Shown piece by piece: positions 1 through 31,264 of a stretch of 53,992 nt of DNA (the stretch's first letter is position 1; each line of letters starts with the position of its first letter). Source of the DNA: a virus (taxonomy: Duplodnaviria; Caudoviricetes); IMG/VR virus record IMGVR_UViG_3300037294_000227, positions 1 to 53,992 of that record; one strand, given 5' to 3'. The translations under genes were made by a program, and so were the position numbers. The notes under the pieces were generated by a model, which saw nothing but the letters and a program-made list of their open reading frames with translations, did no database searches and had not been told where the DNA came from.

Positions 1-157
1 AAATAATTTTAATAAAATCTTCAAAAGTCCAGTCAATGTTTTTTATATTGTTGTTTGGCAACAGCCCATGAAAGTTTCTGCTACACATAGGACAACTTGC
101 CTGGCAGCGAGTAGTTAGTTCGATTTCAATTTTATGAAGCTGATCAAATTTAAACAC
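1..157 (-). CDS. Radical SAM protein, N-terminal part (truncated by window edge; not in ORF track)
   Basis: Manual translation from GTG at 157: MFKFDQLHKIEIELTTRCQASCPMCSRNFHGLLPNNNIKNIDWTFEDFIKII. CxxxCxxC motif, AGGA SD upstream, clear paralog of 1189..2241. Confidence 0.85.
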   Translation of the reverse strand, partial: MFKFDQLHKIEIELTTRCQASCPMCSRNFHGLLPNNNIKNIDWTFEDFIKII

Positions 158-174
158 AAACGGTTCCTTTTAGT

Positions 175-184
175 TAAATATTTA
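175..184. promoter_or_regulatory. Palindromic TAAATATTTA: overlapping T4-like late promoter cores on both strands
   Basis: TAAATA at 175-180 (+) and 184-179 (-) in the 28-nt gap between divergent genes. Confidence 0.6.
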
Positions 185-185
185 T

Positions 186-1232
186 GTGAACAACATATCA
201 GCAATAAAATTAAAACAAAAAGAACCAATGATGGTTACTTGGGACACTGGCAGACGTTGTAATTTTGATTGCAGCTACTGTGATCTTTCTCGACACGATA
301 CATTTAGTCCATTGACCTCTTTAAAATCATTGCAACTTACATACAAATTTATACAAGAGTACACCAAGCTGTACAATCAACCCAACGCTAATATTGCATT
401 TACTGGCGGCGAACCAACTGTAAATCCTAATTTTTGGCAGTTGATCGATACTATTGAAAACTTTACATTAGGATTGACCACAAACGGAACATTTCCAACA
501 AATAAAATAGATACAATTTTAAACAAATTTGTAGCAGTAACTATAAGCTGGCATTCTGAAATCGATCAAAAACTCAAAGATAGAGCAATAGAAAACGCAA
601 TACTATTAAGCGCCGCAGGGTTTAACGTTCGCGTAAATGTAATGATGCACACCGATTGTTGGAACGAATGTATACAAGCATACGATAAGCTAACATCAGC
701 AGGAGTAACTACAAATGCAGTTATTATCGGCGATGGCAATTTAGGGAGTACTGAATTTTACAAAGACGCTACTGGAACGTTGAGACGAACCAGTCATCCT
801 TATACCGAAGAACAGCAATTGTGGTATTTTAATATCAAAGGTCTTGATACTAACATTATTAACGATATAAAAAGTGGAAATCAACTGCCACGTAGCTGTT
901 GCGGGAACAGAGATCTAATGGGAAAATGCAATGGATGTTGGACTGATATTACGGCTGTTAACACAAATTTTAAAGGATGGTTTTGTAGTGTGAACAAATA
1001 TTTTATGCATATAGATCAGCACACCGGAAATGTGTATCATCATCAAACCTGTAAGGCAAAATTCAATAACGAAAGAGGCCCAATCGGCAATCTTAAAAAC
1101 ACAGATCTTATATTGGATTATGTATCTAAAAATGCAAACAATACAATAGTTTGTCCAAACTTGCGATGCGGATGTGGAATGTGTGCGCCTAAAGCTCAGA
1201 ATAAATCTGAACTTGATCGTTTGGGTTATTAA
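186..1232 (+). CDS. Radical SAM protein with C-terminal Cys-rich (SPASM/twitch-like) domain
   Basis: CNFDCSYC, FTGGEPT, TTNG; C-terminal SCCG...WFC...CPNLRCGCGMCAPK. Paralog of 4166..5254. Confidence 0.9.
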   Translation: MNNISAIKLKQKEPMMVTWDTGRRCNFDCSYCDLSRHDTFSPLTSLKSLQLTYKFIQEYTKLYNQPNANIAFTGGEPTVNPNFWQLIDTIENFTLGLTTNGTFPTNKIDTILNKFVAVTISWHSEIDQKLKDRAIENAILLSAAGFNVRVNVMMHTDCWNECIQAYDKLTSAGVTTNAVIIGDGNLGSTEFYKDATGTLRRTSHPYTEEQQLWYFNIKGLDTNIINDIKSGNQLPRSCCGNRDLMGKCNGCWTDITAVNTNFKGWFCSVNKYFMHIDQHTGNVYHHQTCKAKFNNERGPIGNLKNTDLILDYVSKNANNTIVCPNLRCGCGMCAPKAQNKSELDRLGY

Positions 1233-2241
1233 AAGTATTCCCGCAAGTTCTAGCACAGGTCCATAGTTTGTTTATGTTCCAATACTTTTTCCAACATTGT
1301 TGAAACTGTGTGGTTTCCAATACTGTGCGTATACCGTGAGAGGCGCTGGTGTCTCCTAGTTCTGCAATTAACTGCAAATATTGCTTTTTAATATAATCCT
1401 TAGGAGTAGCAAGCGTATCAGTTGGTTTGTAATAATCATACGGAATAGCTGCAAGAAAACAACAAGGCATTATATTACGATGTGCATCTATATATAATTC
1501 ACCTTTGTGTTTTGCATAACAACTTATTTGAGTATCATCGATTATCTTTGCAACTACATTCAAATCGCTTACATCAAAATACTTTGCTTTATTGTTTGAC
1601 GGTGGCTCCAAATAATATTCAGTATCTCCAGTTTTGTTTAACACCGAAAACTTTTTTTCAAAATTAAATCTATTACTGTCTTTGACACTAAAATATTTAA
1701 ACCCGTGTGTTTTTGCCAATGCTTCGGCAGCTTCAACTTGATGTTGGTTGTGCTTGAATTTTATAAAACTCCATTCGGCAATTCCTCCTGCTTTTATAAA
1801 AGCCTTTGCATTGTCTAATATCTTATCAAAGTCTGTGCCAATTCTGTATTTACTGTGTGTGTCGCGTAAACCGTCGATTGCAAAAATTACTCTATGTTCT
1901 GTAGACAAATGTTTTACAAAACTTTTCCAATAACTGACATTTCGTAGACTACCATTTGTATGTATTTCTACACTAATATTTTGAGTTTTTAATATTTCTG
2001 TCATCAATTGCAAGTCGTTGTTTACTACAGGGTCACCAAAATTTCCGCAAAATGTAATGTGTTTTATAGTATCAAACACCGGTTGTACAATAGTTTTAAA
2101 ATCTGATACAGACCAATCTGTTTCTATTAGTTTGGTATTTGGCAATCCGCTGTGATAGTTTCTGCTGCACATAGGACAACTTGCCTGGCACTTATTTGTT
2201 ATTTCTAAATGTAAGCTTTTAAGATCTGTATACTGGAACAT
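1189..2241 (-). CDS. Radical SAM protein with C-terminal twitch/SPASM-like domain
   Basis: CQASCPMC, GNFGDP (GGE-motif variant), HTNG, IDG; C-terminal SC...PCC...CARTC. Confidence 0.9.
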   Translation of the reverse strand: MFQYTDLKSLHLEITNKCQASCPMCSRNYHSGLPNTKLIETDWSVSDFKTIVQPVFDTIKHITFCGNFGDPVVNNDLQLMTEILKTQNISVEIHTNGSLRNVSYWKSFVKHLSTEHRVIFAIDGLRDTHSKYRIGTDFDKILDNAKAFIKAGGIAEWSFIKFKHNQHQVEAAEALAKTHGFKYFSVKDSNRFNFEKKFSVLNKTGDTEYYLEPPSNNKAKYFDVSDLNVVAKIIDDTQISCYAKHKGELYIDAHRNIMPCCFLAAIPYDYYKPTDTLATPKDYIKKQYLQLIAELGDTSASHGIRTVLETTQFQQCWKKYWNINKLWTCARTCGNTFNNPNDQVQIYSEL

Positions 2242-2245
2242 GTTT

Positions 2246-2275
2246 TATTTATGTGCGTATATTTCTCTATAAATA
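2246..2275. promoter_or_regulatory. Back-to-back late promoter cores
   Basis: TAAATA on - (2251-2246) lies 4 nt before ATG 2241; TATAAATA on + (2268-2275) lies 4 nt before ATG 2280. Confidence 0.7.
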
Positions 2276-2279
2276 ATGT

Positions 2280-3026
2280 ATGGACAGTTCTCATCATAGT
2301 TTTTTTCAAAAAAATAAAATATATACACAACAATTAAACAGACTTCCAAGTCTAACAATGTCAGACGAAGAAATTGCATTATGGATGTTGCAAGGCGGAC
2401 ATGGGGATTGGATTGAGTTAGATTTGCAAATCAATACATCTTCTTGGATTGCAGAATATCATACTGTGCAAGATATGTTTGTGCCTCACAGAGACATTGA
2501 TTCTGGTGAAGGAACACATCAGGGGTGGAGTGCTTGCACATTGCATGGCATAAGCTACGATAAAACAAATGTGTGGCAAGAGTATGGATACAAAACTGAG
2601 CCAGAATACAACTGGACACAAGCAGGAAAAAAATGCCCAAGCATAAAGTCTGCATTTGAGTCATTGCCTGCAGAACACCTAGCTAGAGTTAGATTTATGA
2701 AACTTGATGCAGGAGGATGGATTTCTCCTCACAACGACCTAGGACCAGGAATCAACTGGAATAAAATTTTTGATTATCCGTTGCCCATGACAATTGCAGT
2801 AGATCACCCCCAAGAATGCTACATGACCCTAGAAAATAGAGGAGTTGTTCCATTTAAAAATAATAAAGCATTTTTAGTTAACATTTTAAACAATCACAGT
2901 GTAATTAATTTTAGCAAGCAAGATAGAATACATGTCATAGGACATCTGTTTGTAGGAAATCGTAAAAAAGAATATTGTAAATTATTAGCAGACAGTTATA
3001 GGAAATCCTATGTTTTACAAAGGTAA
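2280..3026 (+). CDS. 2OG-Fe(II) oxygenase, aspartyl/asparaginyl beta-hydroxylase-like
   Basis: RVRFMKLDAGGWISPHND (HxD) ... HSVINFSKQDRIHVI (distal His plus 2OG-binding Arg). Confidence 0.8.
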   Translation: MDSSHHSFFQKNKIYTQQLNRLPSLTMSDEEIALWMLQGGHGDWIELDLQINTSSWIAEYHTVQDMFVPHRDIDSGEGTHQGWSACTLHGISYDKTNVWQEYGYKTEPEYNWTQAGKKCPSIKSAFESLPAEHLARVRFMKLDAGGWISPHNDLGPGINWNKIFDYPLPMTIAVDHPQECYMTLENRGVVPFKNNKAFLVNILNNHSVINFSKQDRIHVIGHLFVGNRKKEYCKLLADSYRKSYVLQR

Positions 3027-4215
3027 AAACAGTTGTGCAGATTTGTGTGTTTGTATAATCGACGACACCGATCAATACAGTCCTTGGATGAAAGAGCTTG
3101 TAAAAAATACTGCGGATTATACTATTACAAATGTAACTGGAATTGGATACGATGTGTGGGTTGGGCGACACGAACACACACTATTAAAACAAGTAGTGGG
3201 CCAATATAAAAGAGCAGTTGTTATTAGTGCAGGAACCGAATTTATAAATGGTAATAAATTCTTTGATAATTTGCCCGAGGATTTTTTTATTCTTGGGCAC
3301 GTACTTGATATGGGAGATGGCTATTACGGATTACACCATCAGTGCTATGTAATAGATCTTGATTTGTATGCTATGTTAGGAAATCCCGAACCTGGACAAA
3401 CACAATTGCTGGAACAGCATATCCAAACTGTTCCAAATAGAAGTAAAGAAAACATTCACGACGATTACACACCTCTTTGGATTTCAAAAGGATCTGCACA
3501 AAAAGTATACAAACACAAGTTTCACGGATGGAGGATAATCAGTGCAGGTCTTGAGGCAGATTATAAAATTTACGCTTTCGACAGCACGCTACGAGACGGA
3601 AAGCATTTCTTGTATTGTGATGTAGATACCAGTGACTGGATTTACAAACGCTACAATCATTGTTTGCAAAATCATGTGTACAAAGACAGCACAGGCAGTG
3701 TGGATTTTCCAAGACCTTACAATTGCAACATCGATCATTTGATATATCCTGCTGCTGGCACAACATGGTTGGACAAATTAAAAAAGCACGGATACGATAG
3801 TTCTACCAAAGTAACGTTTTATGACTATAATCAATCAGCGTTAGATTACATGCAAGCTAATACTAGAGATATGGGTTTAATTTTTGAATTTGCATTGTTG
3901 GATGCAATTGCAGAGCCCGAGTGCATAGTCGAACTTGTTGACAAAAACTGCAATCCGCAAGGTGTTGTTATACACATGAGCAATATTTTTTCGTACGAAG
4001 GAACAGCAAGTTTAATGCCGTTAAAATATCGAGTGCAACAAGAAAATAAACTTATCGAAAGTGTACAATCAAAAATTCCTATGTGTGTTTTAGAATTTGA
4101 TCAGCGTGCAGCCGAAGGATTTGTACCATGGCGTGCAGAAACAGGACTTGCAAAAGACTTAGAACTCACTGATCTTTCAACTGCGGTACTTCCTCCGTGG
4201 CATACTTATGATTGA
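3010..4215 (+). CDS. Hypothetical protein; C-terminal part weakly Rossmann/SAM-binding-like
   Basis: 401-aa ORF overlapping the oxygenase stop, AGGA SD. PAAG...VTFYDYNQSAL...HMSNIF resembles class I MTase motifs (weak). Confidence 0.6.
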   Translation: MFYKGKNSCADLCVCIIDDTDQYSPWMKELVKNTADYTITNVTGIGYDVWVGRHEHTLLKQVVGQYKRAVVISAGTEFINGNKFFDNLPEDFFILGHVLDMGDGYYGLHHQCYVIDLDLYAMLGNPEPGQTQLLEQHIQTVPNRSKENIHDDYTPLWISKGSAQKVYKHKFHGWRIISAGLEADYKIYAFDSTLRDGKHFLYCDVDTSDWIYKRYNHCLQNHVYKDSTGSVDFPRPYNCNIDHLIYPAAGTTWLDKLKKHGYDSSTKVTFYDYNQSALDYMQANTRDMGLIFEFALLDAIAEPECIVELVDKNCNPQGVVIHMSNIFSYEGTASLMPLKYRVQQENKLIESVQSKIPMCVLEFDQRAAEGFVPWRAETGLAKDLELTDLSTAVLPPWHTYD

Positions 4216-5254
4216 TTATTTTAAACTTTTCAGGAGTTGCTGCTTTTGGTGCGCATAGTCCACACCAGCATTTTGTTTTTTTGCACACAATAGTCGGTGT
4301 TCCTAGCAATAATCTGTCTATGATGGCACGAGTGTCTTTTAAGTTTCCTATGGGCCCAATGCGATCGTCCCAGGTCATACGACAGTCTTTGTTTGTAAAA
4401 ACTTCACCTGTGGTTTGTCTAATATATAAAAAGTATTTGTCAACACTACAACTCCACCCTTGGAAGTTGTTTCCTTCTACATACTTTGTGTCATAACTAT
4501 TGTTAACACACATGCTGTTGCCGCCGCAACATGCTCTTCCGGTACTGGCTAAGTCGTGACCGCGAGTAAGTACTGCTTTTATTTTTTGTGTTAACTTTGT
4601 AGGAGTTTTTCCTGTTAAAAACTTTACCTGTCGTGGAGAATAATTAAAACGTATGTCAAACCAGTGATGATCAATTTGTCTCACGTGGTATGGTGCTTTA
4701 ATTGCTTTTAACCAGCGTATTATTTTTAAACATTTTAGCCATAATTCTTTTTTTGGATGCATCATAACATTTACTTGGAATGATTTTTTTCTAATTATCA
4801 ATCCTCTAACATTGTCTTTGAATAGCCCTTCTTGAGTAGAATTTCCTTCTGCATGAAAACTTACGGTAAAATGATCTACTAACTTGCAAACTTTGTCCCA
4901 CTGATGCCGACCTACTACTGCATTTGTTATCAACGCTACTGTAAGTGTATAATCTATCTTTTCTTTTTTTGATTGTATGTATTCTAATATTTCAATGATG
5001 TTTGGGTGAAACACGCTTTCGCCGCCTTGAACGTTTAATCCTGCGATTCTCATATGGCTGGGCTTATTGTTCATTTGTATCTGTAAATATTCAAATATAA
5101 AATCAACAGTTTTTAAGCTATCTTCGAGACTAGGATGTTGCAATCTATTATTATGCCCATCGCCGCAATAACTACAATCCATATTGCATTTTAAAGTGCT
5201 TTCCCATGCAACTTGAAAACTTAAATTGTTTACTGGTACTAATGAATCTATCAT
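4166..5254 (-). CDS. Radical SAM protein with C-terminal Cys-rich domain
   Basis: CNMDCSYC, QGGES, ITN; ACCGG...WSC...CKKTKCWCGLCAPK. Start moved from 5314 to 5254 because of the ATGA overlap with the upstream stop. Confidence 0.9.
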   Translation of the reverse strand: MIDSLVPVNNLSFQVAWESTLKCNMDCSYCGDGHNNRLQHPSLEDSLKTVDFIFEYLQIQMNNKPSHMRIAGLNVQGGESVFHPNIIEILEYIQSKKEKIDYTLTVALITNAVVGRHQWDKVCKLVDHFTVSFHAEGNSTQEGLFKDNVRGLIIRKKSFQVNVMMHPKKELWLKCLKIIRWLKAIKAPYHVRQIDHHWFDIRFNYSPRQVKFLTGKTPTKLTQKIKAVLTRGHDLASTGRACCGGNSMCVNNSYDTKYVEGNNFQGWSCSVDKYFLYIRQTTGEVFTNKDCRMTWDDRIGPIGNLKDTRAIIDRLLLGTPTIVCKKTKCWCGLCAPKAATPEKFKIINHKYATEEVPQLKDQ

Positions 5255-6207
5255 TGTATTATCCATTTTTTTATAGAAATTTCTCCGGCGCATCCGCATA
5301 TATCGCGTGAGCAAAGTGTCGGCTGTATTGTAGGGCTGAACTCAAAGTCTTTATCGTTAATGTTATAAGTCTTATCAAATAGCCGCTGGTTGCAATTGGA
5401 TGTTATTACTCTGTTGGTAATTTTAATATGATCGACTCCTAAATTACAGTGCCATCCTTTAAAATAGTTTAAATTATTTCGAGTAATCCAACTGTCACTG
5501 TTTGTAATAGTTTTTTCATTATTGTTGTGCGTGATTGTAATTTCTGTTCTTGGTTTACGAGAAGTAGAATGAAACCAATCTGCGTTAGGATATCGTTTAA
5601 TAGGTTCTTCAAAATATTTTAATTGCTCAATTGTATAACAAGATTGACCATCAAACAATACAACTTTTGCAACAATTGGCCAAGGCAGTGTTAACTGTTG
5701 CATCTGTTCGACTAACTCAACGCATGTGTTAAATGCAGCTGGATCTATTAACACATCTACATTAACTAGTATCTCCGAACTGTATAAAAAATCAGCAAGA
5801 GTTTTAATTTTGTTTATTTTTGCATATTCGTGGTGTACGCTAATATTAATATGATCCAGCACTCTTGCTGCTTTTTGCCACCATATTATACCTCTAGTAC
5901 CATTGGTACTAATTTCTAAAATACAATTGTATTTTGATTTTAAGAAAATACAAAGTTCTAAAAAGTCATCCCATAATGTGGGTTCACCTCCAACAAAAAA
6001 AATATTAAACACATCTTTGCCATTTGCTGCATAATGATTTAGAACTTTTGATAAGTTTGTTTTAACGATTTCTAGGTCCGGCCAATTTGTATTGCCCTCG
6101 TTGCTGCCCGGGAAGCAGTAATTGCATTTTTGATTGCAAGTATTTCCTAGCATATATTCTATTCTAAGAACATTATCAGGTTGATTATTTTCTACTTTTA
6201 TTATCAT
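5251..6207 (-). CDS. Radical SAM protein with C-terminal Cys-rich domain
   Basis: CNQKCNYC, VGGEPT, STNG; WHCNLG...C...CSRDICGC. Paralog of 19391..20359. Confidence 0.9.
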   Translation of the reverse strand: MIIKVENNQPDNVLRIEYMLGNTCNQKCNYCFPGSNEGNTNWPDLEIVKTNLSKVLNHYAANGKDVFNIFFVGGEPTLWDDFLELCIFLKSKYNCILEISTNGTRGIIWWQKAARVLDHINISVHHEYAKINKIKTLADFLYSSEILVNVDVLIDPAAFNTCVELVEQMQQLTLPWPIVAKVVLFDGQSCYTIEQLKYFEEPIKRYPNADWFHSTSRKPRTEITITHNNNEKTITNSDSWITRNNLNYFKGWHCNLGVDHIKITNRVITSNCNQRLFDKTYNINDKDFEFSPTIQPTLCSRDICGCAGEISIKKWIIQ

Positions 6208-7583
6208 AATAAGTGTGCTAACTCAGGAAAAGTATTTTTGGCGCTAATTCCTCTAATTGCATCTAACTTGTTTACATATTCCTTGAATCCAGGTAGCCTT
6301 TCGGTATGGTCAGCACTTTCCATATAAACTAATATTGATTCCCAACGTCTCCATCCATAAGGATTTGACTCCCAAAAACTTTGATCTAAGTTGCCGTGAT
6401 TTTGTAACCATATCTTAAACTGCATAAACTTGTCACGTATTTCTTGTTTATCATCTTTGGAGAAATTTTGTATATTTAAAAATGTTGGTATGTATAAGAG
6501 GTGCATATTAATCAGGCCGCCGCCTGCTTGCACATTTTTAATTACTTCTGTATTGACTTTTTTAAAGTTACTATTGACTTTCCAATGTATAAAATCTGGA
6601 AGGTGCTTGATATTAAACATCTGAATAGCAGTAGCAATACTAGGACGTATGTTATCAGGAGTGTTGTCCAGCATATGGAGGTTACGCTCAACTGTTTCCC
6701 AATCTGTTGGGTACCTAATGTAATTGTTACGATCTGTATGTGCGTCAATGCTGACTCCGACTTTTACAACTGCAAAATGTTTCCATAGTTCGATAAGTTC
6801 TTCGTCTACAAGAATGCCATTGGTGTTATAACGCAGCCTAATTTTTTTATTGTGTCCACTGCGTACAATTTCTTCGATAAACTTTTTATGTTCTTTGATC
6901 ATTAAAGGTTCGCCGCCTGCGAAGTACACCTCTTCTAAATACGGAATTTGTTTGTACAATTGATCCCAAAATATTTCATTTTCGTGCCATTTGTTATTAA
7001 AGGACGATTTATCCCATTGCATCTGCCGCTTGACTTCAGGATCTTCTAATTGTGGTGCTAGCACTTTCCAGTCAGCTACCCATTTACTACTGTCATGTGG
7101 CGAACACATAACACACTTGATATTGCAAGTATGCCCAAGCCTTAGATCTAAATATTTGAGTTGATCTTTGTATCTACCATCAGATTGCGTGTCGTTTAAC
7201 ATAGTGACAGGATCGAGGCCGCGCTCCATCCAAGTAGTGGTTTCCCACATACGCTTGCTCACAACTCCTTGTTGCTCTTCAGCAAAGCACTTGGTACAAC
7301 TTGCTGGAATGTTACCGTCCATCATTGTGCGTCTGATGTTACGCATATATTCACTATTCCATGCCTGCATAGGAGTGGTAGTACTAAAGTTTACTGGATC
7401 ACCTGCGTCATCCTTTACTAAGCCCACTGTATGATCAACACCAGCACCACTAGCATTAGCACTGCAACATACCCGCATGTCTCCATTTGGTCGTGTTGCC
7501 ATGTGTATCCAAGGTAACGCACAAAATGTAGGAGTAGCAGTTTCTGCAATGGTGTCTTGCCATTGATCTAATAGTTGTTTCAT
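6204..7583 (-). CDS. Radical SAM protein with N-terminal twitch/SPASM-like domain
   Basis: N-terminal FCALPWIH...VCC...CTKC, then CNIKCVMC, FAGGEP, YNTNG, SID, YIRYPTDW. Confidence 0.9.
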   Translation of the reverse strand: MKQLLDQWQDTIAETATPTFCALPWIHMATRPNGDMRVCCSANASGAGVDHTVGLVKDDAGDPVNFSTTTPMQAWNSEYMRNIRRTMMDGNIPASCTKCFAEEQQGVVSKRMWETTTWMERGLDPVTMLNDTQSDGRYKDQLKYLDLRLGHTCNIKCVMCSPHDSSKWVADWKVLAPQLEDPEVKRQMQWDKSSFNNKWHENEIFWDQLYKQIPYLEEVYFAGGEPLMIKEHKKFIEEIVRSGHNKKIRLRYNTNGILVDEELIELWKHFAVVKVGVSIDAHTDRNNYIRYPTDWETVERNLHMLDNTPDNIRPSIATAIQMFNIKHLPDFIHWKVNSNFKKVNTEVIKNVQAGGGLINMHLLYIPTFLNIQNFSKDDKQEIRDKFMQFKIWLQNHGNLDQSFWESNPYGWRRWESILVYMESADHTERLPGFKEYVNKLDAIRGISAKNTFPELAHLL

Positions 7584-11313: not shown

Positions 11314-11323
11314 TGTGTACCTA

Positions 11324-11331
11324 TATAAATA
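11324..11331 (+). promoter_or_regulatory. T4-like late promoter TATAAATA
   Basis: Exact TATAAATA 5 nt upstream of ATG 11337, no SD between them. Confidence 0.7.
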
Positions 11332-11336
11332 TTACT

Positions 11337-11924: not shown

Positions 11925-11927
11925 GTT

Positions 11928-12728: not shown

Positions 12729-12737
12729 GGCACTCCT

Positions 12738-12759
12738 TAAATAGTTGTATGAATATTTA
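12738..12759. promoter_or_regulatory. Face-to-face late promoter cores
   Basis: TAAATA on + at 12738-12743 (5 nt before ATG 12749); TAAATA on - at 12759-12754, upstream of the SD-led ATG 12728. Confidence 0.6.
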
Positions 12760-14524: not shown

Positions 14525-14536
14525 TTCTTACCTTGA

Positions 14537-14558
14537 ATAAATATATGTATATATTTAT
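14537..14558. promoter_or_regulatory. 10-bp inverted repeat carrying TAAATA on both strands
   Basis: ATAAATATAT-GT-ATATATTTAT between divergent genes starting at 14524 (-) and 14574 (+). Confidence 0.6.
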
Positions 14559-14573
14559 CAACGGAGTTACTGT

Positions 14574-20359: not shown

Positions 20360-21641
20360 ACTTACGCAACCATTCCATTTCTGGGTACACAGACCAAAAA
20401 TCTTCTTTACGGTGCTGATCTAGTCCGTGATTCTTTTCAAAAAAATCTTTTAGGCGCTGTTGATTAAACGAACCTGTGTTCATAAATTGAATAACGCTAT
20501 CAATTTTTCCAAGTACATCTTTTACTACATCAGGTTTTGCAATCATACGTTCTTTGATTTTATCATAAGCCCACGCTTTGTAATCGATATACTTTGCTCT
20601 TAGTTCTATTTTTATATCTTCGGGTATATTATCGATCCGCATAAAGTTTGGATCTGTGAGTATATTTAGCCTACAATTCTCAATATCGACTAAACCTCGT
20701 TCTACCCAATCCATATGAAAATCTGGCCAATTCCATACATTGTATAGGCTAATAGTAGGAGTAAGTTCAAAGTGTACATGCGGAACATGTTCTAACATTT
20801 CAAGTCTGTTACGTTCAATCTGTTCCCAGTTGGTGCCATGTCGAGAAAATTCTGCTCTAGATCCGTCTGCATCTAAACTTGCGCTTACTTGTATATCACT
20901 AAAATGTTTCCAATAATCGATAATACTTTTTTTCTTAAATCGTAAATTACTGAAATTTGTAGTGTAACGCAGACGCACACCTGTCTTGCCGTCAGCAATC
21001 CATTTATCTAATATTTTATAATGTTCGTCTGTGATTAGTGGCTCGCCGCCTGCCCAGTATACTTCTTCGACATTGGGTAAGAACTCTTGTAACTCTTCCC
21101 AAAAAGTTATATGTTTTGCTACGTTAACTACAATGCTACCATCGTTGTTGAGAATGTTAGCAACTTCGTGTTTTCCGTATAGTTCGCCGTGTTCTTGTGC
21201 ATGTAAACTACTTAACTCAGGACCACAAGTGCGACATTTCATATTGCAAATATTACTAAAACGAATATCCATATATGCCATGCGCATATCTTCTTCTGGA
21301 ATACTGCCGTCTGTTGCTGTTTTTTCTACTAGATCAAAATGCTTGTCGCCGAACCATTGATTATGATTTTTACGAAGAGTCCAGATATATGTACTGTCTT
21401 CTAATTCATAACAACGATTACAACAATTAAGTTTTTTACCTTCTAACATAGCAAGACGTAATTCTTTATAGCGATCACTATTCCATGTTTCTTTCACGCC
21501 ATCTTTTTTAACATTACCAAATGGTTGATCACTGTCAGCAATGCAACAGGGCATAGCCCTACCGTCTGGCCAAACATGCATATGGATCCACGGTAATATA
21601 CAAAACGCTTTATTTTCGTTTAACAATACATCTTTAATCAT
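20352..21641 (-). CDS. Radical SAM protein with N-terminal twitch/SPASM-like domain
   Basis: FCILPWIH...PCC...CNRC; CNMKCRTC; WAGGEP; YTTN. Confidence 0.9.
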   Translation of the reverse strand: MIKDVLLNENKAFCILPWIHMHVWPDGRAMPCCIADSDQPFGNVKKDGVKETWNSDRYKELRLAMLEGKKLNCCNRCYELEDSTYIWTLRKNHNQWFGDKHFDLVEKTATDGSIPEEDMRMAYMDIRFSNICNMKCRTCGPELSSLHAQEHGELYGKHEVANILNNDGSIVVNVAKHITFWEELQEFLPNVEEVYWAGGEPLITDEHYKILDKWIADGKTGVRLRYTTNFSNLRFKKKSIIDYWKHFSDIQVSASLDADGSRAEFSRHGTNWEQIERNRLEMLEHVPHVHFELTPTISLYNVWNWPDFHMDWVERGLVDIENCRLNILTDPNFMRIDNIPEDIKIELRAKYIDYKAWAYDKIKERMIAKPDVVKDVLGKIDSVIQFMNTGSFNQQRLKDFFEKNHGLDQHRKEDFWSVYPEMEWLRKYV

Positions 21642-22860
21642 CTAGCATCTCTTTTAATTCAGGGAAAATTTTTGTAAAATCTTCTCCTCTAATTTCATCT
21701 CGACGTTTTACATGATGCCGAAATTCAACCTTGTGTTCATTCCATTGATTTTCTTCGTTGGTAAAGTTAATAGCGTCATTAACATGCACTGCTTGATACC
21801 AATCACCGTCGATCATATACTGGTGTACTTTTTTTAATCTGCTGGATCCTATATCTTTTATAGATTGGGGCAATATCTTAGAACAATAATAAGTAGGAGT
21901 TAGTGCTCTGTAAATACTTATCATGTCCTTTCGACGTAGCAGCAGTTTTCCGATCATATAATTTAAAAATTCATCCATGGTTGCATAGTTAAACGCACTT
22001 AATACTGTATTAAACTGAAAGTCAATATAATCCAAATCTCTGATGCTTTTTAAATTTTCTTCTACCACACCCCAGTCTGTTCCGTGACGCAAGTATTCTG
22101 CACGTTCGCCATAATGATCAAGACTTGCACTGATTTCAACACGCTTAAACTTGCTCCACATATCAAGTATATCATATTTTTTATATTTAAAATTACTCAT
22201 ATTGGTATTATAACGTAGTGTAATGTTTTTGTTTGCGCCAGTACGAATCATCTCTTCAAGCAATACATAATGCTCGTCGGTAATAAGAGGTTCACCCCCT
22301 GCAAAGTAAGCAAGATCCATATTTGGTACTTGTGCTTTGATTTCTTCTAGCAACGCACCTGAGTTGTCAGCATGTTGAATAATACGATAATCCGGAGGTG
22401 TCCAGTCATGCTGTTTCATTTCTTGAGCCCATTGGCTGCTGAATTCGCTACCGCAGGTTCTGCATTTGAAATTGCAAATGTTACTAAACCTTACATCAAA
22501 ATATTTCATTTTAAATTCAGGAACAGTGCCGTCTGGTTGTGTGGTAGTTACAACTTCGTCAAAGTCTTTACCAAAGTGTTCCAAACTGTATTTTCTAAAA
22601 CTAAATGGCGAAGTTTCCTCGTGCTTATAACAATAGTTACAGATGCTGTTTTTTTTGCCAGCAAGCATATCAAGGCGCAACTGTTTCATTTTGTCACCAT
22701 TGAACACTTGTGCTAAACTCTTGCCTTTGATATTATCGAACGGGGCAGTATAATCACTGCTACAGCACGGATATACATTTCCAAGTGGTGTCACATTCAT
22801 ATGCGTCCAAGGAAACATACAAAATGTCTTGCTTTCATTTAATAACTTATCTTTATTCAC
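21634..22860 (-). CDS. Radical SAM protein with N-terminal twitch/SPASM-like domain
   Basis: FCMFPWTH...PCC...CNYC; CNFKCRTC; FAGGEP; YNTN. Confidence 0.9.
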   Translation of the reverse strand: MNKDKLLNESKTFCMFPWTHMNVTPLGNVYPCCSSDYTAPFDNIKGKSLAQVFNGDKMKQLRLDMLAGKKNSICNYCYKHEETSPFSFRKYSLEHFGKDFDEVVTTTQPDGTVPEFKMKYFDVRFSNICNFKCRTCGSEFSSQWAQEMKQHDWTPPDYRIIQHADNSGALLEEIKAQVPNMDLAYFAGGEPLITDEHYVLLEEMIRTGANKNITLRYNTNMSNFKYKKYDILDMWSKFKRVEISASLDHYGERAEYLRHGTDWGVVEENLKSIRDLDYIDFQFNTVLSAFNYATMDEFLNYMIGKLLLRRKDMISIYRALTPTYYCSKILPQSIKDIGSSRLKKVHQYMIDGDWYQAVHVNDAINFTNEENQWNEHKVEFRHHVKRRDEIRGEDFTKIFPELKEMLDD

Positions 22861-24232
22861 TTACATTCTCACACAGTTTAAAAAAGTCTTTCATTTCAGG
22901 AAAGTTTGCTTCAAAGTCATTTCCTCTACGAGCGTCTTGCTCTTTGAAAAAATTCCAAAAATCTTTGCGACCTTCAAGAAGCTTTTCGTCGTTATATTGA
23001 GTTGTTTTCATATAGTCAACGACACGTCTAAATTTTTCGTATTCAAGATTAGTAAAGTGTTGCTTACTACCTTCTTGTGTGTTGTCTTTGATGAATTGCA
23101 AATGACTTTCCATATACGGCAAATATTCTTCTTTAGGGAGAATATTAATGTCATATTGTAAGGGCTCTTTGAGATAAGGAGTGTCAAAGTGAATGCGCTG
23201 CCACCGACCGCTGTTGGTATCGTTGTATTTTGCACGCCATTCAAGCATTTTTTCCAACAGGCTTTGAAATGTAGTCACACTAAACAAATTGAATGTAATC
23301 ATAAACGTAACTTGCGCAGTTGTGTTGCGCATGAAATAATCAAGATTACGTTCAAACACTTCGATATCAAGTCCGTCGCGAATATATTCAGCACGCTTAC
23401 CCCAAGTGTCCACACTTGTAAACAATTTAAAGTTTTTAATTTTATTTTGGGTAAGCAAGCTGTTTACTCCATCAGTAAACTTTTCAAGCTGCCGTTCTTT
23501 ACCTCCAAGATTACTGTTTACATTTAATTCAAGATGCGGCTTGGGATCTTTTTCAAGTTCATCAAACAATCGATAAGTGCTTTTTTGAATAGTAGGTTCG
23601 CCGCCTGTGATACGCAAGATGTTTAGTGTTTTGCTAACTTCGGGCCACCATTTCCACCATGCTCTTACATAAGGATTGCTGTCTTCTTCATAAACACGAA
23701 ACCAATCAATGTCACAGCGGTGGTTCTTAGACATAGTATAAGGACCGTGTTGACGTATTTCGTTGTGATAACGACTGCTGGCTTTAGGGTGACAGTATCC
23801 GCAACGGAAATTACATTCGTTACCAAATGAAACTTCAATGTATTCAGGATTTACGTTAAAGTCCCAAGGATTAAATTTAATTTCTTGCAAGCGTTCTTCG
23901 TTGTAAATACTGCCGCTTCGGATATGACGATCACTAACATAGTCATCGCCCATGTTTTCAATGTTCCAACAATATTGACATCCTACACATTGCTTGCCTT
24001 CGAGCATTTCTTTGCGTTCAAGTTTTTTGTGTTTGGTATTGTGCAATGCACTTGGATTGGTCAGCAATTCGTCTACATCAATTTTATGAGGAGCCGGGTG
24101 ATAACAACTGTGTGTTTCGCCTGTTTGCAAATATATTGTAGTATGGTACCATTTAGCAAAACAAAATGTTGGACTGAAATGACGATTTGTGATTCCGTTG
24201 ATGGCTTTTAAACGATCTTGATCCAATGACAT
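22853..24232 (-). CDS. Radical SAM protein with N-terminal twitch-like domain
   Basis: FCFAKWYH...SCYH...CQYC; CNFRCGYC; ITGGEP; EYIRDGLD. Confidence 0.9.
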   Translation of the reverse strand: MSLDQDRLKAINGITNRHFSPTFCFAKWYHTTIYLQTGETHSCYHPAPHKIDVDELLTNPSALHNTKHKKLERKEMLEGKQCVGCQYCWNIENMGDDYVSDRHIRSGSIYNEERLQEIKFNPWDFNVNPEYIEVSFGNECNFRCGYCHPKASSRYHNEIRQHGPYTMSKNHRCDIDWFRVYEEDSNPYVRAWWKWWPEVSKTLNILRITGGEPTIQKSTYRLFDELEKDPKPHLELNVNSNLGGKERQLEKFTDGVNSLLTQNKIKNFKLFTSVDTWGKRAEYIRDGLDIEVFERNLDYFMRNTTAQVTFMITFNLFSVTTFQSLLEKMLEWRAKYNDTNSGRWQRIHFDTPYLKEPLQYDINILPKEEYLPYMESHLQFIKDNTQEGSKQHFTNLEYEKFRRVVDYMKTTQYNDEKLLEGRKDFWNFFKEQDARRGNDFEANFPEMKDFFKLCENVSE

Positions 24233-25161
24233 TAATTTTCTCTATCTATAAATTGTTGGCCTGAAATTCTTGCAGGATTTTGATATACTGTTTTAAAAAA
24301 TTTACTCTGTCCTGCATCCAAGGTTGTCTCGGCAATTGGAATTTCTAAAGCATGTATAAGCTTGGCGCCATATTCCTCGATTGCTTCGGGCAAATTTTCT
24401 TCGTCGACTGTGGCTTCAATATTTTTCCACATATTATTTAGGTATGTAAAATCACGTACATTTACAAAATCCCAATCAGTACACATTGTCATGAATAGCC
24501 CTTGTCGAGCGCCGTAGATGCCCCACATGCCGTTTTCTACATCTGCACCGACCATAAGCCAAATGTACAGACGATGTAAGTTTTTCCAATGATTTTTATG
24601 AAAATCTTCTACACTCACACGCATGCCGCGATCAAGTGCCATCTTAACTCCTTCCCTAAATCCTGCACGCCAGGCTTGTTGCGGAGTAGTATTATTCATA
24701 ATTTCTGAGTAGCACCCGTTCATTTGAATATATTCGATATCCCAGCAAAAGTCTACTTGTGCATGTGGATTATCTGCAGGTGCGTTTTCGTGTGTTTTCA
24801 TATTCAACACATATTCTTTGGGCCAGCACTTTATGCCACCGTTACCATACGCAAGTCCGTTGATATGATTTTTAGCAGTCCAACTGATTACGCACTTTTC
24901 CAGATCTTTGTGTGCTTCAAAATCAAACTCTTTGGTAAGGAACTCTTTGTCAATAACATTGTCACCGTCAATGGTAATAAAGCGATTTGTCTCACTTAAT
25001 TCTGCGCAAGCTTTATGTGCTGCATCACTGCCCTCAACTCCGTGTACACGCTTTGCCCAGGGAATTTTGCTACACAGATCGGCATAATTTTTTTCTGCAT
25101 TTGGTTCGTCGTAACTTAGATAAATGATGTCAAAATCTAACACTCTAAATTTGTTAGTCAT
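24232..25161 (-). CDS. Putative GT-A-fold glycosyltransferase
   Basis: IIYLSYDEP N-terminal strand, AAHKACA helix followed by FITIDGD (DxD). Confidence 0.6.
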   Translation of the reverse strand: MTNKFRVLDFDIIYLSYDEPNAEKNYADLCSKIPWAKRVHGVEGSDAAHKACAELSETNRFITIDGDNVIDKEFLTKEFDFEAHKDLEKCVISWTAKNHINGLAYGNGGIKCWPKEYVLNMKTHENAPADNPHAQVDFCWDIEYIQMNGCYSEIMNNTTPQQAWRAGFREGVKMALDRGMRVSVEDFHKNHWKNLHRLYIWLMVGADVENGMWGIYGARQGLFMTMCTDWDFVNVRDFTYLNNMWKNIEATVDEENLPEAIEEYGAKLIHALEIPIAETTLDAGQSKFFKTVYQNPARISGQQFIDREN

Positions 25162-25745
25162 ACTAATACCTCGTGATAATATGTCTCTAGTCTCTTTGTA
25201 GTATACACACTTAATGCAGACGGGTCAAGTTCTATTTGGGTATCAAAACTAATACCAATTGTTTCATTTTCAACCAAATCCGAGATGCGTATTTTGATAA
25301 ATTTTTCCAACTGGTGTAAATCATTGTATTGAGTAATACTAAATGTTAAAATACTATTTAGATGCATATTTTTTGTTCTAAAATTTTCTCTAACTGTTTT
25401 GTCAAGACTAAAGTGCCATGTTTTATTTTTAATATCTTGTGTAATTTTTAAATCAGCTAGACTATCCAACTGTTTTGAAATTTTATATATATCAACATTG
25501 ATATCAAGGTTTATTTCTTCATTATTAAAAACATGTTTTAGAATATATGATTTTTTAACAGTATCAAATATTACTTGATAATGAAAAAATTGTTCTTTAC
25601 CTGATAACAACGAATCTATTTCGTTTAGTTCAACTGCAATGCGATTGCCAGGCTGTGTATCAGTATTTGATACACTGAGTAAATTTCCATTGTCATCAAA
25701 ATATACGTAACGTTGTGTTTGGACATACATTATAGAATTACTCAT
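25158..25745 (-). CDS. Hypothetical protein
   Basis: 195-aa ORF overlapping its neighbours on both sides, consistent with translational coupling. Confidence 0.75.
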   Translation of the reverse strand: MSNSIMYVQTQRYVYFDDNGNLLSVSNTDTQPGNRIAVELNEIDSLLSGKEQFFHYQVIFDTVKKSYILKHVFNNEEINLDINVDIYKISKQLDSLADLKITQDIKNKTWHFSLDKTVRENFRTKNMHLNSILTFSITQYNDLHQLEKFIKIRISDLVENETIGISFDTQIELDPSALSVYTTKRLETYYHEVLV

Positions 25746-26586
25746 TATGCACTCCTAGATAATCTTCATATATTTTTATTATATCATCTGTAACAAAATC
25801 TTTTTCTGTATAATGAAAAATGCCGCTCTGTTTGTAATTTCCAATTTTTAAAGTTAAATTATTGTCTAAATAAACCTTAACTTTGTCTTGCCATTTGTCA
25901 GTAACAAATGTCTTCCAATCTTGACAATGTGTTTTCATATGCACAAAATTAGGAAAACTAGTTTGGCTAGTTACTGCATCTTCCATATCTAAAATTTTAG
26001 TTACAATAGCTGCACTAACGTCTACACTGGGCCACTGCTGAAAGTATTTGCCGCCTGCAAACTGCCCATAAAATAGTTCCCAATTGTTCATAACAATTTC
26101 TAACCATTTAAAAAACACGTGAGCATTATCATTTTTTTTGAAATAGTGAAACCCTGCATATAAGTTAGGAAGTTCATGGTTTTTAAATGCTTTTCTATAA
26201 TATATACTTGTAACCGGATCACCACGATATGTTAAAGCATTTGTTGTGAAATAAACATCTTTGGATTGTAGTAAATTCCACCAAGTTGCTATATTGTCTA
26301 ACACTAACATATCTGTGTCTAGTACAATAGTCTGATCGTATGGAGTAGCATGATAGATTTTCCATCTATTTTCTATTTTCCATTCACTCGAGGCTGCTTG
26401 GTCATTCCACGGAATATCAACTATATCATCAAAGACACTTGCTGTTTTTTTATCTAACATTGTATCAGTTATCAAACATATTTTACTTCCTGGGTTGGTT
26501 GCTCGTATACTCATTGCACACAGGTATGCCTGTTTAACATAGTCATGTGTACTATTTTGTGCAAATAGTGTAAAATTAATAGACAT
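25738..26586 (-). CDS. GT8-like (GT-A) glycosyltransferase
   Basis: AMSIRATNP...ICLITD...FDDIV...TPYDQTIVLDTDML (DxD)...FVHMK. Confidence 0.72.
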   Translation of the reverse strand: MSINFTLFAQNSTHDYVKQAYLCAMSIRATNPGSKICLITDTMLDKKTASVFDDIVDIPWNDQAASSEWKIENRWKIYHATPYDQTIVLDTDMLVLDNIATWWNLLQSKDVYFTTNALTYRGDPVTSIYYRKAFKNHELPNLYAGFHYFKKNDNAHVFFKWLEIVMNNWELFYGQFAGGKYFQQWPSVDVSAAIVTKILDMEDAVTSQTSFPNFVHMKTHCQDWKTFVTDKWQDKVKVYLDNNLTLKIGNYKQSGIFHYTEKDFVTDDIIKIYEDYLGVHNE

Positions 26587-27409
26587 CGATGACCCTATTT
26601 AAACTAAATTTATTCATAACGTGAACATTACTACCAGTGATGCTCGCTGGAAAATACGTTCCACTTTTGTATTCTATTAAAAACTTGAATGTAGTATCGT
26701 TCAACGTTAATAATATATCTTTATCAGTAGTGTAAAACATTGTACCAGGAAGCGGATTAGCAAAGTTTCCTTGCTGATATCCATTCATAATGTGTATTGC
26801 TATACTAAATGCATGATCATTTCTAAATGTATCAGTGTTTAAATTATAAAGTCTGCGATAATGCAACCAGTTTTCTTTGATATGTTTTAACAAATCAAAA
26901 AACAATTTGTTTGTATCGGTTTTTTTAAAATAAACAACTGTTGCCCAATAAAAATCTATGCTTGTTTCACTGATATAGTCAAACTCACTCAAGTCTCGCC
27001 AATTTGATAGTTCAAAACCAGTTTTATAAATTAAAAAATTATTTTTCTGCAAAAAACAATTCTTTAAGACACTGTTACTTACAATAAAATCAGTATCCAT
27101 TAGCAATGTTTCGTTGTACGGCGATAAATCATATACATCGCAACGAGAAGTATTTTTAAATTCTAAACTTTTTCGAGTAAAATTACCGTCATTATACTTT
27201 TTGTATGTGTAATTTGTATCGTTTTCGATTACAATAATATTGTCAAACGGATGATTAGAAAAGTTTGTTTCTATATAATCCTTGTTGTCCGTAATTATAC
27301 TAACAGGAATTTCAAGATATTTTATAATTCGATTAGCACAGAATACAGCTTGCTTAACATAATCAACTTCTGCATTATTACGTGCAATTAAAACTGCACC
27401 TTTGCTCAT
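26576..27409 (-). CDS. GT8-like (GT-A) glycosyltransferase
   Basis: VSIITD...FDNII...SPYNETLLMDTDFI (DxD)...FRND...VHVMNK. Paralog of 25738..26586. Confidence 0.72.
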   Translation of the reverse strand: MSKGAVLIARNNAEVDYVKQAVFCANRIIKYLEIPVSIITDNKDYIETNFSNHPFDNIIVIENDTNYTYKKYNDGNFTRKSLEFKNTSRCDVYDLSPYNETLLMDTDFIVSNSVLKNCFLQKNNFLIYKTGFELSNWRDLSEFDYISETSIDFYWATVVYFKKTDTNKLFFDLLKHIKENWLHYRRLYNLNTDTFRNDHAFSIAIHIMNGYQQGNFANPLPGTMFYTTDKDILLTLNDTTFKFLIEYKSGTYFPASITGSNVHVMNKFSLNRVIDVY

Positions 27410-27753
27410 AAATCAACTATGCCTTCTACAGTTCTATTTCTTTTTAACTTATTATATTCGGTAAGATAGGTGTTTGCGGCTTGCCAATAAACACTGACAA
27501 TTTTGTTTGCAAACAATTGCAAATCTTCAACTTCAGTTGGAATATCGTTGTCGTCAATTAAAATTGTGCTAGACTGCTGAAGTGCTAATAGACTTTGACA
27601 AAAACTTATTAGCCCAGTAGTTACTGTAAATTGACTACCATCGTGATAATGAATTAAGTTATTTTGAAATTGTTCTTTTAGAACACGCTTCTGGTTGCCT
27701 AATGTAACCATATAATTACTAAATTCTAATGCTTTTTCTAGACGAGCGTCCAT
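27406..27753 (-). CDS. Hypothetical protein heading the enzyme operon
   Basis: 115 aa, strong AGGAG SD, ATGA overlap with the next gene. Confidence 0.8.
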   Translation of the reverse strand: MDARLEKALEFSNYMVTLGNQKRVLKEQFQNNLIHYHDGSQFTVTTGLISFCQSLLALQQSSTILIDDNDIPTEVEDLQLFANKIVSVYWQAANTYLTEYNKLKRNRTVEGIVDL

Positions 27754-31225: not shown

Positions 31226-31254
31226 TTTTTAAATTACCCTTGCTGTAATGTTAG

Positions 31255-31260: not shown

Positions 31261-31264
31261 CCTA

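Follow-up and report, generated by a model that had tools for sequence, protein, structure and literature searches.

Clustered glycosyltransferase (GT) and radical S-adenosylmethionine (rSAM) genes have been described in several phages. In T4-like pelagimyophages and cyanomyophages, the host recognition cluster (HRC) combines fibre genes with several GTs, of which GT8 is the commonest, and with rSAM cassettes, and its size averages 44.6 kb (Zaragoza-Solas et al., 2020, mSystems, PMC7029224). The HRC is located between VrlC and the neck gene gp14 of a Tevenvirinae-type genome. Per genome, 11–12 rSAM genes are described for the Campylobacter phages CP220 and CPt10, with a module of five rSAM genes and a putative glycine amidinotransferase gene (Timms et al., 2010, BMC Genomics, PMC2853527), and 12 rSAM genes are reported for one marine T4-like environmental genome (PMC5332604). 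In addition, 'antibiotic synthesis genes' are reported for the cyanophage S-SCSM2R (BMC Biol, 2025, PMC12801897), and mycobacteriophages are reported to decorate their own particle proteins with GTs encoded beside the structural genes (Freeman et al., 2023, Cell Host Microbe, cited in PMC12619734). Here, we analysed a stretch of 53,992 bases (the window), which is the whole of the IMG/VR virus contig IMGVR_UViG_3300037294_000227 (CheckV completeness estimate 15%). Positions 1–27753 hold an island of rSAM, GT and further tailoring genes, which a preliminary description had read as a pathway for a hypermodified glycan on virion proteins. The sugar-building and sugar-tailoring part of that reading is the best supported one, through GT folds, a short-chain dehydrogenase/reductase (SDR), a DegT-like protein and a StrB1-type amidinotransferase, whereas the virion-protein target is read from gene position. 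We tentatively propose that the island encodes soluble enzymes that first build up a glycan and then subject it to extensive editing, the acceptor most likely being a virion protein near the fibres. Genes and proteins are named below by their lower coordinate in the window.

The island had been credited with 11 rSAM genes, and this count held: ten whole open reading frames (ORFs) carry the CxxxCxxC motif and the eleventh lies as a fragment at the contig end. A miscount of the eleventh was considered and rejected, as the fragment carries CxxxCxxC. Pfam Radical_SAM (PF04055) exceeded its gathering score in seven of the ten whole ORFs; among the remaining three, 20352 and 22853 pass the NCBIfam model NF033640, while BLASTP identifies 4166 as a paralogue of 186 (4e-36). 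Four groups were distinguished, namely the N_Twi proteins (four genes), proteins with a Cys-rich C terminus (four genes), 1189 together with the end fragment, and the B12-binding protein 17262. The first group is defined by NF033640 (N_Twi_rSAM, 'twitch domain-containing radical SAM protein'), which has a curated cut-off of 170 bits; against this model, the other six whole rSAM proteins scored 34–40 bits and are therefore not members. In the N_Twi proteins, Pfam SPASM was matched at residues 14–99, N-terminal to the core (~124–305). Their N-terminal part contains four invariant Cys and aligns to the twitch domain of BtrN, its best match among solved structures (E 2e-4). No publication on the NF033640 reaction was found in literature searches. 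The second group (186, 4166, 5251 and 19391) consists of paralogues sharing conserved C-terminal Cys columns. The rSAM paralogues show 20–35% mutual identity, yet each is well conserved between phages, which suggests many distinct editing steps.

The firmest family call in the island is the amidinotransferase 12749, whose earlier assignment was fully borne out: its profile matched StrB1 (PDB 1bwd) over the full length at E 9e-59, followed among PDB entries by HsvA, AGAT and SxtG, and the protein is 82–90% identical across relatives. The C-terminal motif, which bears the catalytic Cys in enzymes of the StrB1/AGAT type, is aligned as well. An aminotransferase had also been named, and 11337 does match the DegT family (PF01041, 53.1 bits; cut-off 19.8), but it is only half-size, with 195 amino acids. 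It aligned to WbpE over residues 37–132 and ~168–218 only, so that the complete two-domain fold (~360 residues) is not present. A broken full-length gene was ruled out, because the short form is kept in relatives (~200 amino acids) and in S-SCSM2R (195 amino acids). A single gene separates the DegT-like gene from the amidinotransferase gene in the window and its close kin, and in several loci of more distant kinship the two are adjacent, with the DegT-like gene upstream. To quantify this coupling, 74 amidinotransferase loci from IMG/VR were grouped by identity to 12749; companion genes were counted where BLAST detected them, and distant homologues may be missed. A DegT-like gene accompanied the amidinotransferase gene in 22/22 loci at ≥ 80% identity, 19/22 at 50–80% and 6/30 below 50%, while ORFs with the rSAM motif were found nearby in 22/22, 20/22 and 7/30 loci, respectively. 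Four IMG/VR contigs of 320–353 kb (L176, L186, L192 and L198) carry distant amidinotransferase homologues (33–38% identity) in one fixed neighbourhood, with a 14574- or 10204-like gene on the opposite strand, a 412-amino-acid ORF and then, directly upstream, an ORF of 172–190 amino acids; the last may be a diverged DegT-like protein.

About six GT-like proteins had been proposed, and all were recovered at the level of the fold, three as GT-A and three as GT-B. The AlphaFold2 (AF2) model of 24232 gave 46 Foldseek matches at E ≤ 1e-3; those listed are all of GT-A type, mostly glycosyltransferases with two sugar nucleotidyltransferases, and among the top ones are ThuS and SunS, which are peptide S-glycosyltransferases, and the capsid glycosyltransferase of PBCV-1. 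In addition, D65-G66-D67, a DxD-type motif of GT-A enzymes, is invariant in the 24232 family. The paralogues 25738 and 26576 (hhalign probability 99.2%) gave a joint profile that weakly matched glycogenin (GT8; E 7e-4) in the N-terminal half. The model of 14574 gave 58 Foldseek matches at E ≤ 1e-3, those listed being GT-B enzymes such as OtsA, TarM, BshA and SdgB, and 8182 and 10204 are its paralogues by hhalign; in a control, unrelated family pairs gave 0.1–1.2%. PDB profile searches with 24232 and with the 14574 family returned nothing usable, and in Protein Atlas 14574 fell into unnamed viral clusters, with a GT10 lead (score 0.79) under the reliability line of that resource. The SDR call was likewise confirmed for 9318 (Epimerase, PF01370, 141 bits), although the protein reached no equivalog cut-off.

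The right half of the window encodes virion genes, all on the minus strand. Judged by its 1146-amino-acid baseplate wedge protein, which is 34–36% identical to proteins of Salicola phage SCTP-2, Sinorhizobium phage Phosso, Agrobacterium phage Atu_ph07 and Rak2-like coliphages, the phage belongs to the jumbo group around SCTP-2, Atu_ph07 and the Rak2-like phages; this protein matched 96 phage records, all at < 60% identity. The first 1200 residues of a 4625-amino-acid ORF showed 29–32% identity to virion structural proteins of Phosso, Atu_ph07 and PA5oct. As the preliminary description had stated, the baseplate and fibre genes are followed immediately downstream by the island, which is co-oriented with them from 27753 to 15890 (12 kb); the island is nearly devoid of intergenic DNA (positions 1–27753 are 99.6% coding, with five gaps that sum to 124 nt), and no DNA-metabolism family was matched among the window proteins. 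Directly upstream of the island are three paralogous tail-fibre genes, and between these and the GT genes lie two Ser/Thr/Gly-rich proteins, 27817 and 28846, with 37% mutual identity. Even those phage loci that are most distant have this pair ahead of their GT genes. Neither protein matched a family in Pfam, PHROGs or NCBIfam, and 28846 fell only into unnamed viral clusters in Protein Atlas. We regard the pair as candidate acceptors or fibre accessories.

Relatives of the island extend beyond the end of the contig. In the 117-kb relative G001, gene order equals that of the window from 27753 to 186, gene for gene, and is followed by ~26 kb more island; 22 CxxxCxxC ORFs lie between 47.6 and 95.3 kb, and the part beyond the window encodes a Trp-halogenase-family protein, three Asp/Arg hydroxylase-type proteins, a nitroreductase and a sulfotransferase. 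The island of G002, the closest relative, runs for at least 65.8 kb, starting with the homologue of 27406 and continuing as far as the contig goes. Of its 25 CxxxCxxC ORFs, 24 match rSAM proteins of the window in BLAST; the island proteins shared with the window are 34–88% identical and their genes colinear. The island in the window is thus cut by the contig end, its far border being off the contig, and under half of it is present. Scanning IMG/VR with 21634 gave 27 loci (46–88% identity) that form one phage clade, of which contigs as long as 374 kb are available. The core genes 24232, 22853, 21634, 20352 and 19391 were all present in 22 of these loci, the other five having short one-sided flanks. 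Furthermore, the island enzymes are more conserved in most relatives (22853, 84–87%; 12749, 82–90%) than the fibre proteins (40–56%). Two cassettes, 17262 and 16630, vary between relatives, so that the locus is a variable island in a structural region, as the HRC is. Synteny had been suggested as a check on the link to fibre genes. This link is kept within the clade, with fibre homologues upstream in all 21 related loci having at least 6 kb of upstream flank, but in distant cultured phages the homologous genes are not next to annotated fibre or structural genes. In the Ralstonia phage RsoM2USA, for example, an orthologue of 22853 (38% identity) is flanked by two DUF6071-like genes; this region and its counterpart in the Vibrio phage K566 are annotated nearly throughout as 'hypothetical protein' and offered no clue to function.

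Homologues were also found in cellular genomes. One genome per species was scanned with the four N_Twi paralogues as queries, and 79 loci were kept, a set that favours similarity to 22853. By their record titles, 50 of the 79 loci are from Bdellovibrionota-type predators, in which the 22853 orthologues are 39–62% identical. A 917-kb Bdellovibrionia contig (L039) has eight adjacent CxxxCxxC ORFs of the N_Twi and 19391/5251 families at locus positions 131–11400. Homologues of 24232, 1189, 19391 and 7580 adjoin N_Twi genes in Bdellovibrionota, and the pairing of 24232 with N_Twi genes is found in phages and Bdellovibrionota alike. Among 123 other neighbouring ORFs from 12 Bdellovibrionota loci, GT2 was the commonest Pfam family (8/123), and families with two members included NTP-transferase, methyltransferase, GNAT and ABC-transporter, plus housekeeping families. 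Literature searches found no publication that links phage N_Twi arrays to Bdellovibrionota. Three contigs assigned to metagenome-assembled genomes of Betaproteobacteria, Rickettsiales and Verrucomicrobia (L049, L051 and L053) show the phage order of fibre, 28846-like gene, GT8-like pair, 24232-like gene and N_Twi genes, and are probably phage DNA misbinned into bacterial genomes.

Many island genes had been placed behind late-type promoters. Of 37 gene starts, 8 do have ATAAATA within the preceding 45 nt (background chance 0.005), namely those of three structural genes and of five island genes at strand switches (1189, 2280, 11337, 13730 and 14574). However, exact TATAAATA is not enriched, with 5 matches against 8.8 expected in the window, and the promoter of the main operon is of the sigma-70 type; the idea that late promoters serve the entire island was therefore rejected. 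Copies of TATAAATA at 2268–2275 (+) and 11324–11331 (+) are separated by just 4–5 nt from the ATG start codons of 2280 and the DegT-like gene 11337, respectively, and if these sites are late promoters the mRNAs would be nearly leaderless. A third perfect sigma-70-type promoter, inside the GT-B-like ORF 8182, would drive the genes downstream of it.

The product of the island is probably a sugar or glycan; that the acceptor is a virion protein is somewhat doubtful. BtrN is an rSAM enzyme that oxidises an aminocyclitol alcohol, StrB1 is an inosamine-phosphate amidinotransferase, and both, like BtrS, have roles in aminoglycoside pathways. The best-supported chemical core is the trio of twitch-domain rSAM enzymes, DegT-like protein and StrB1-type amidinotransferase, to which a reaction sequence can be tentatively given by analogy with BtrN, DegT-type aminotransferases and StrB1. 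In the scheme that we propose, the GT-A and GT-B enzymes, with the nucleoside-diphosphate (NDP)-sugar SDR as supplier, would build a sugar chain on a cytoplasmic acceptor. The twitch-domain rSAM enzymes would then oxidise chosen hydroxyls to ketones in the manner of BtrN, the half-size DegT-like protein would convert ketone to amine, and the StrB1-type enzyme would convert amine to a guanidino group with arginine as donor. Further edits may be made by the other rSAM paralogues, the B12-binding rSAM protein, the G-C-S-motif proteins described below and the hydroxylase, and in the relatives the halogenase-family enzyme and the sulfotransferase may contribute extra ones.

Several observations weigh against this scheme. 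None of the six GT-like proteins matched a Pfam GT family at E < 0.01, and the Foldseek TM-scores of the GT models are low (0.24–0.40), so that the models are fold-level evidence only. The half-size DegT-like protein may be inactive as an aminotransferase, and rSAM genes are near just 7 of the 30 distant amidinotransferase loci. As to linkage, the 21 loci with upstream fibre genes amount to roughly one observation because they are kin; in Vibrio phage K566 four N_Twi paralogues lie near NAD-salvage genes, and in S-SCSM2R the DegT/amidinotransferase pair sits among oxygenase genes near a DNA ligase gene. The 12-kb operon (27406 to 15890) begins at a sigma-70-type promoter and not a late one, 27817 also begins at a perfect sigma-70-type promoter, and in T4-type phages sigma-70-type promoters are early promoters. 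Moreover, the halogenase-family, hydroxylase, nitroreductase and sulfotransferase proteins of G001 fit the tailoring of proteins or small molecules equally well, and we know of no glycan pathway with 20 or more rSAM enzymes.

It is rather unlikely, in our estimate, that the enzymes instead alter lipopolysaccharide (LPS) core, O-chain or capsule sugars of the host during infection, with host membrane steps exporting the product, to block superinfection by other phages or to keep progeny off cell debris. Such a role is the reading given to the GTs in the HRC passages of the pelagimyophage study, where GT8-like enzymes are described as typical of LPS core synthesis (PMC7029224). Early expression would fit the sigma-70-type promoters with which the island starts, and the Bdellovibrionota arrays do lie beside GT2, NTP-transferase and ABC-transporter genes; the late-type motifs ahead of five island genes speak against this role. 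Against it, a membrane segment, defined as a 19-residue stretch with mean Kyte-Doolittle hydropathy ≥ 1.6, was found in none of the 38 window proteins and in none of the ORFs at 44–104 kb of G001, which places the encoded steps in the cytoplasm. By this screen, the membrane transferase, flippase, polymerase and transporter of a surface polysaccharide linked to undecaprenyl phosphate are absent. The island of the window and G001 thus has no membrane protein, flippase, polymerase or ligase, a weak point of this argument being that the host could supply them. Lytic jumbo phages, moreover, are not known to bring about serotype conversion.

We consider it improbable that the enzymes act mainly on amino-acid side chains of the fibre proteins, or on a peptide resembling ribosomally synthesized and post-translationally modified peptides (RiPPs), with sugars as one decoration among many. 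The best NCBIfam scores of the B12-binding rSAM protein do belong to RiPP C-methyltransferases (TIGR03975, 110 bits; ApyD, 99 bits; both below cut-off), which speaks for this view and against the glycan scheme. Asp/Arg beta-hydroxylase-type enzymes (one in the window, three in G001), the strong Trp_halogenase match in G001 (227.7 bits) and the weakly protein-kinase-like 16630 point the same way, as do ThuS, SunS and the PBCV-1 capsid GT among the matches of 24232 and the protein glycosyltransferase SdgB among those of 14574. However, the TM-scores of these fold matches are low, and the acceptor cannot be read from them. With nested small ORFs excluded, no precursor-like small ORF stands out, and the 124 nt of gaps leave no room for one outside the listed ORFs; nor did Pfam detect at E < 0.01 a PqqD/RRE-type domain such as marks a RiPP cluster. 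The SDR, the DegT-like and the StrB1-type enzymes point to sugar or cyclitol chemistry.

Still less probable is a free guanidino compound, aminoglycoside- or aminocyclitol-like, directed at the host or at competitors. The gene set resembles that of aminoglycoside pathways, with a BtrN-like twitch-domain rSAM enzyme, a DegT-type protein, a StrB1 relative, a kinase-like protein, an NDP-sugar SDR and GTs, and the S-SCSM2R homologues were named 'antibiotic synthesis genes' by their authors (PMC12801897). However, the window showed no gene for an exporter or for self-resistance, and no inositol or 2-deoxy-scyllo-inosose synthase family was matched with Pfam or NCBIfam. The numbers of GT and rSAM genes are, to our knowledge, far above those of any aminoglycoside pathway. 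Very improbable, finally, is a complex glycan placed by the GTs and tailoring enzymes on a modified DNA base to evade host nucleases: viral GT-A and GT-B enzymes related to LPS enzymes are described as putting mono- to trisaccharides on 5-hydroxymethylcytosine, from clusters that can adjoin structural genes (10.1101/2023.12.21.572611), but of the enzymes typical of such clusters neither a cytosine methyltransferase nor a TET/JBP-type dioxygenase nor a thymidylate-synthase-type hydroxymethylase was matched among the window proteins, PF00303 was found in 0/5 related fragments (15–32% of a genome each; control positive in 10/14 genomes), as was PF12851 (0/5 of the same fragments, the control being silent too), and Bdellovibrionota carry homologous arrays in their chromosomes, which speaks against a role specific to phage DNA.

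The remaining genes of the island received labels of varying strength. The 2-oxoglutarate (2OG) oxygenase named earlier was substantiated (2280; Asp_Arg_Hydrox, PF05118, 39.3 bits; cut-off 22.6), whereas the methyltransferase-like label of 7580 found zero support in Pfam, NCBIfam, PHROGs or a PDB profile search. For the kinase-like 16630, all six PDB matches are protein kinases but at E 0.1–0.9, and PHROGs and NCBIfam gave nothing. Three genes (11928, 13730 and 15890) had been called SGNH-like; they share an invariant G-C-S block, to which the alignment adds an invariant N and two H, and hhalign probabilities between their families are 15.8%, 69.9% and 91.3%, but the sole GDSL structure match came at E 0.49, and matches of the G-C-S profile to Saf pilus proteins look spurious and were set aside. 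No match was found for 3010 in Pfam, NCBIfam or PHROGs, and no family match for 25158 and 27406 in Pfam, PHROGs or NCBIfam. The window contains no tRNA gene and no Rfam family, and hence no cobalamin or SAM riboswitch of that collection. At 53711–53880, inside ORF 53587–53991, an 84-bp unit occurs twice in tandem (98% match). All features are collected in Table 1.

Table 1. Features of the window, in order of position, and selected genes of relative G001.
Feature	Position	Strand	Evidence and remarks
Eleventh rSAM, N-terminal fragment	1-174	-	CxxxCxxC in same context as 1189; paralogue of 1189; cut by contig end
rSAM, C-terminal Cys-rich (twitch/SPASM-like) family	186-1232	+	PF04055 48.4 bits; paralogue of 4166/5251/19391
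rSAM, separate family	1189-2241	-	PF04055 35.3 bits
Asp/Arg beta-hydroxylase-type 2OG oxygenase	2280-3026	+	PF05118
Conserved protein	3010-4215	+	44-70% identical homologues in G001, G002
rSAM, C-terminal Cys-rich family	4166-5314	-	CxxxCxxC; PF04055 28.5 bits, slightly below cut-off
rSAM, C-terminal Cys-rich family	5251-6207	-	PF04055 50.4 bits
N_Twi rSAM	6204-7583	-	NF033640 388.1 bits; SPASM match at residues 21-99, ahead of rSAM core
Conserved protein	7580-8191	-	Homologues adjoin N_Twi genes in Bdellovibrionota
GT-B-like, paralogue of 14574	8182-9339	-	hhalign 99.2%
Perfect sigma-70-type promoter (12/12), extended TG	8950-8978	-	Inside GT-B-like ORF 8182-9339
Extended SDR, NDP-sugar epimerase/4,6-dehydratase type	9318-10229	-	PF01370; UDP-glucose 4-epimerase 4zrm at 8e-28
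GT-B-like, paralogue of 14574	10204-11313	-	hhalign 97.8-99.0%
Half-size DegT-like protein, 195 aa	11337-11924	+	PF01041; start probably 11337; near amidinotransferase
G-C-S-motif protein, possibly SGNH-like	11928-12782	-	Invariant G-C-S, N, H columns; hhalign 69.9% to 13730 family
Predicted StrB1-type arginine amidinotransferase	12749-13753	+	1bwd match over residues 6-332; C-terminal Cys motif aligned
G-C-S-motif protein, possibly SGNH-like	13730-14524	-	hhalign 91.3% to 15890 family
GT-B-fold protein	14574-15893	+	AF2 model pLDDT 77.7, pTM 0.82; Foldseek
DUF6071 protein with G-C-S motif	15890-16633	-	PF19547 60.6 bits, cut-off 27
Weakly protein-kinase-like, variable cassette	16630-17271	-	PDB matches; in 8/27 related loci
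B12-binding rSAM, variable cassette	17262-19391	-	PF02310 42.8 bits and PF04055 58.1 bits; in 4/27 related loci
rSAM, C-terminal Cys-rich family	19391-20359	-	PF04055 34.1 bits
N_Twi rSAM	20352-21641	-	NF033640 381 bits
N_Twi rSAM	21634-22860	-	NF033640 387.7 bits; 3515 database homologues at E<=1e-5
N_Twi rSAM, most conserved one	22853-24232	-	NF033640 303 bits; 84-87% identity in most relatives
GT-A-fold protein, paired with N_Twi genes	24232-25161	-	AF2 model pLDDT 78.9; Foldseek
Poorly conserved protein without Cys	25158-25745	-	37-61% identity in relatives
Two paralogous GT8-like (GT-A) genes	25738-26586 and 26576-27409	-	Joint profile against glycogenin
First gene of co-oriented operon, 115 aa	27406-27753	-	Conserved at 48-73%
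Perfect sigma-70-type promoter (12/12)	27775-27802	-	Ahead of 27406
Two paralogous Ser/Thr/Gly-rich proteins	27817-28797 and 28846-29733	-	Between fibre genes and GT genes
Perfect sigma-70-type promoter (12/12)	28821-28849	-	Ahead of 27817
Three paralogous tail-fibre genes	29762-35130	-	PHROG tail fibre/virion structural protein matches; Collar domain; common N-termini
4625-aa ORF	35766-49643	-	CBM_5_12 match 42 bits and weak FG-GAP match
gp25-like protein	53129-53575	-	
G001: Trp-halogenase-family protein	L120:13386-14804	-	227.7 bits
G001: sulfotransferase	L122:769-1635	-	135 bits
G001: nitroreductase	L121:16378-17064	+	

If the glycan scheme is true, private carbohydrate chemistry takes up at least a sixth of the genome in some of the largest aquatic phages, in a pathway that uses more rSAM enzymes than any other known to us. 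NF033640, with thousands of database members, would gain its first functional context, and guanidino sugars on a virus particle would be a new chemistry for host recognition. The link to Bdellovibrionota would suggest a common tool of organisms that attack Gram-negative cells. One extension of the scheme, which we regard as distinctly unlikely, is that the island makes a polycationic guanidino-glycan coat on adhesive structures, namely the phage fibres and their Bdellovibrionota equivalents, that aids attachment to the anionic Gram-negative outer membrane. The N_Twi rSAM enzymes and their partners would then be a new enzyme class that edits sugars already in the chain, with one paralogue per position, which would explain at least 20 rSAM enzymes in one phage. 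Since S-SCSM2R is cultured, the DegT/StrB1-type pair that it has in common with the window is testable there and offers a direct experimental entry point.

The preliminary description knew of no characterised function for such gene runs, and literature searches agree, yet islands of this type have already been published. Like the HRC, the locus is a large variable island in the structural region with fibre genes, GTs and rSAM cassettes (PMC7029224). Unlike the HRC, it belongs to a phage of the jumbo group and not to a pelagimyophage, and in G002 it reaches at least 65.8 kb against the HRC mean of 44.6 kb; rSAM families, an amidinotransferase and a Bdellovibrionota link are not described in the HRC passages of that paper (PMC7029224). 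With CP220 and CPt10 it shares a phage block of rSAM and amidinotransferase genes without an explained function, the CP220 amidinotransferase being 25% identical to 12749, whereas those phages are of another lineage with another host, and the passages on their rSAM genes mention no fibre linkage or GT content (PMC2853527). A tblastn search with two of the four window N_Twi proteins found no Campylobacter phage.

Four window proteins have the architecture of NF033640, in which a four-Cys domain precedes the CxxxCxxC core; this family is a catalogue entry only. As in aminoglycoside pathways, a BtrN-type rSAM, a DegT-type aminotransferase and StrB1 types co-occur; unlike in those pathways, the twitch domain is N-terminal and not C-terminal as in BtrN, the DegT-like protein is half-size, a cyclitol synthase is absent, and GT and rSAM genes are far more numerous. 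The amidinotransferase and the 195-amino-acid DegT-like protein (ORF305) of S-SCSM2R are 65% and 56% identical to those of the window, respectively, and around them are one rSAM gene, five genes annotated as GTs, and genes for 2OG oxygenases and a PrnA-type halogenase. In contrast to the window, the stretch of S-SCSM2R seen has just one annotated rSAM gene, no detected N_Twi protein and no adjoining annotated fibre genes. The mycobacteriophage systems are reportedly those of siphoviruses of Actinobacteria, with few GTs and without radical SAM, amidinotransferase or aminotransferase genes. Taken together, the island is conserved and without a characterised function, and it differs from the published ones by its phage lineage, its much larger size and its defined rSAM families; new here are the finding that the window covers less than half of the island, the fold-level support for six GTs, the mixed promoters, the absence of membrane proteins and the quantified coupling of the DegT-like and amidinotransferase genes.

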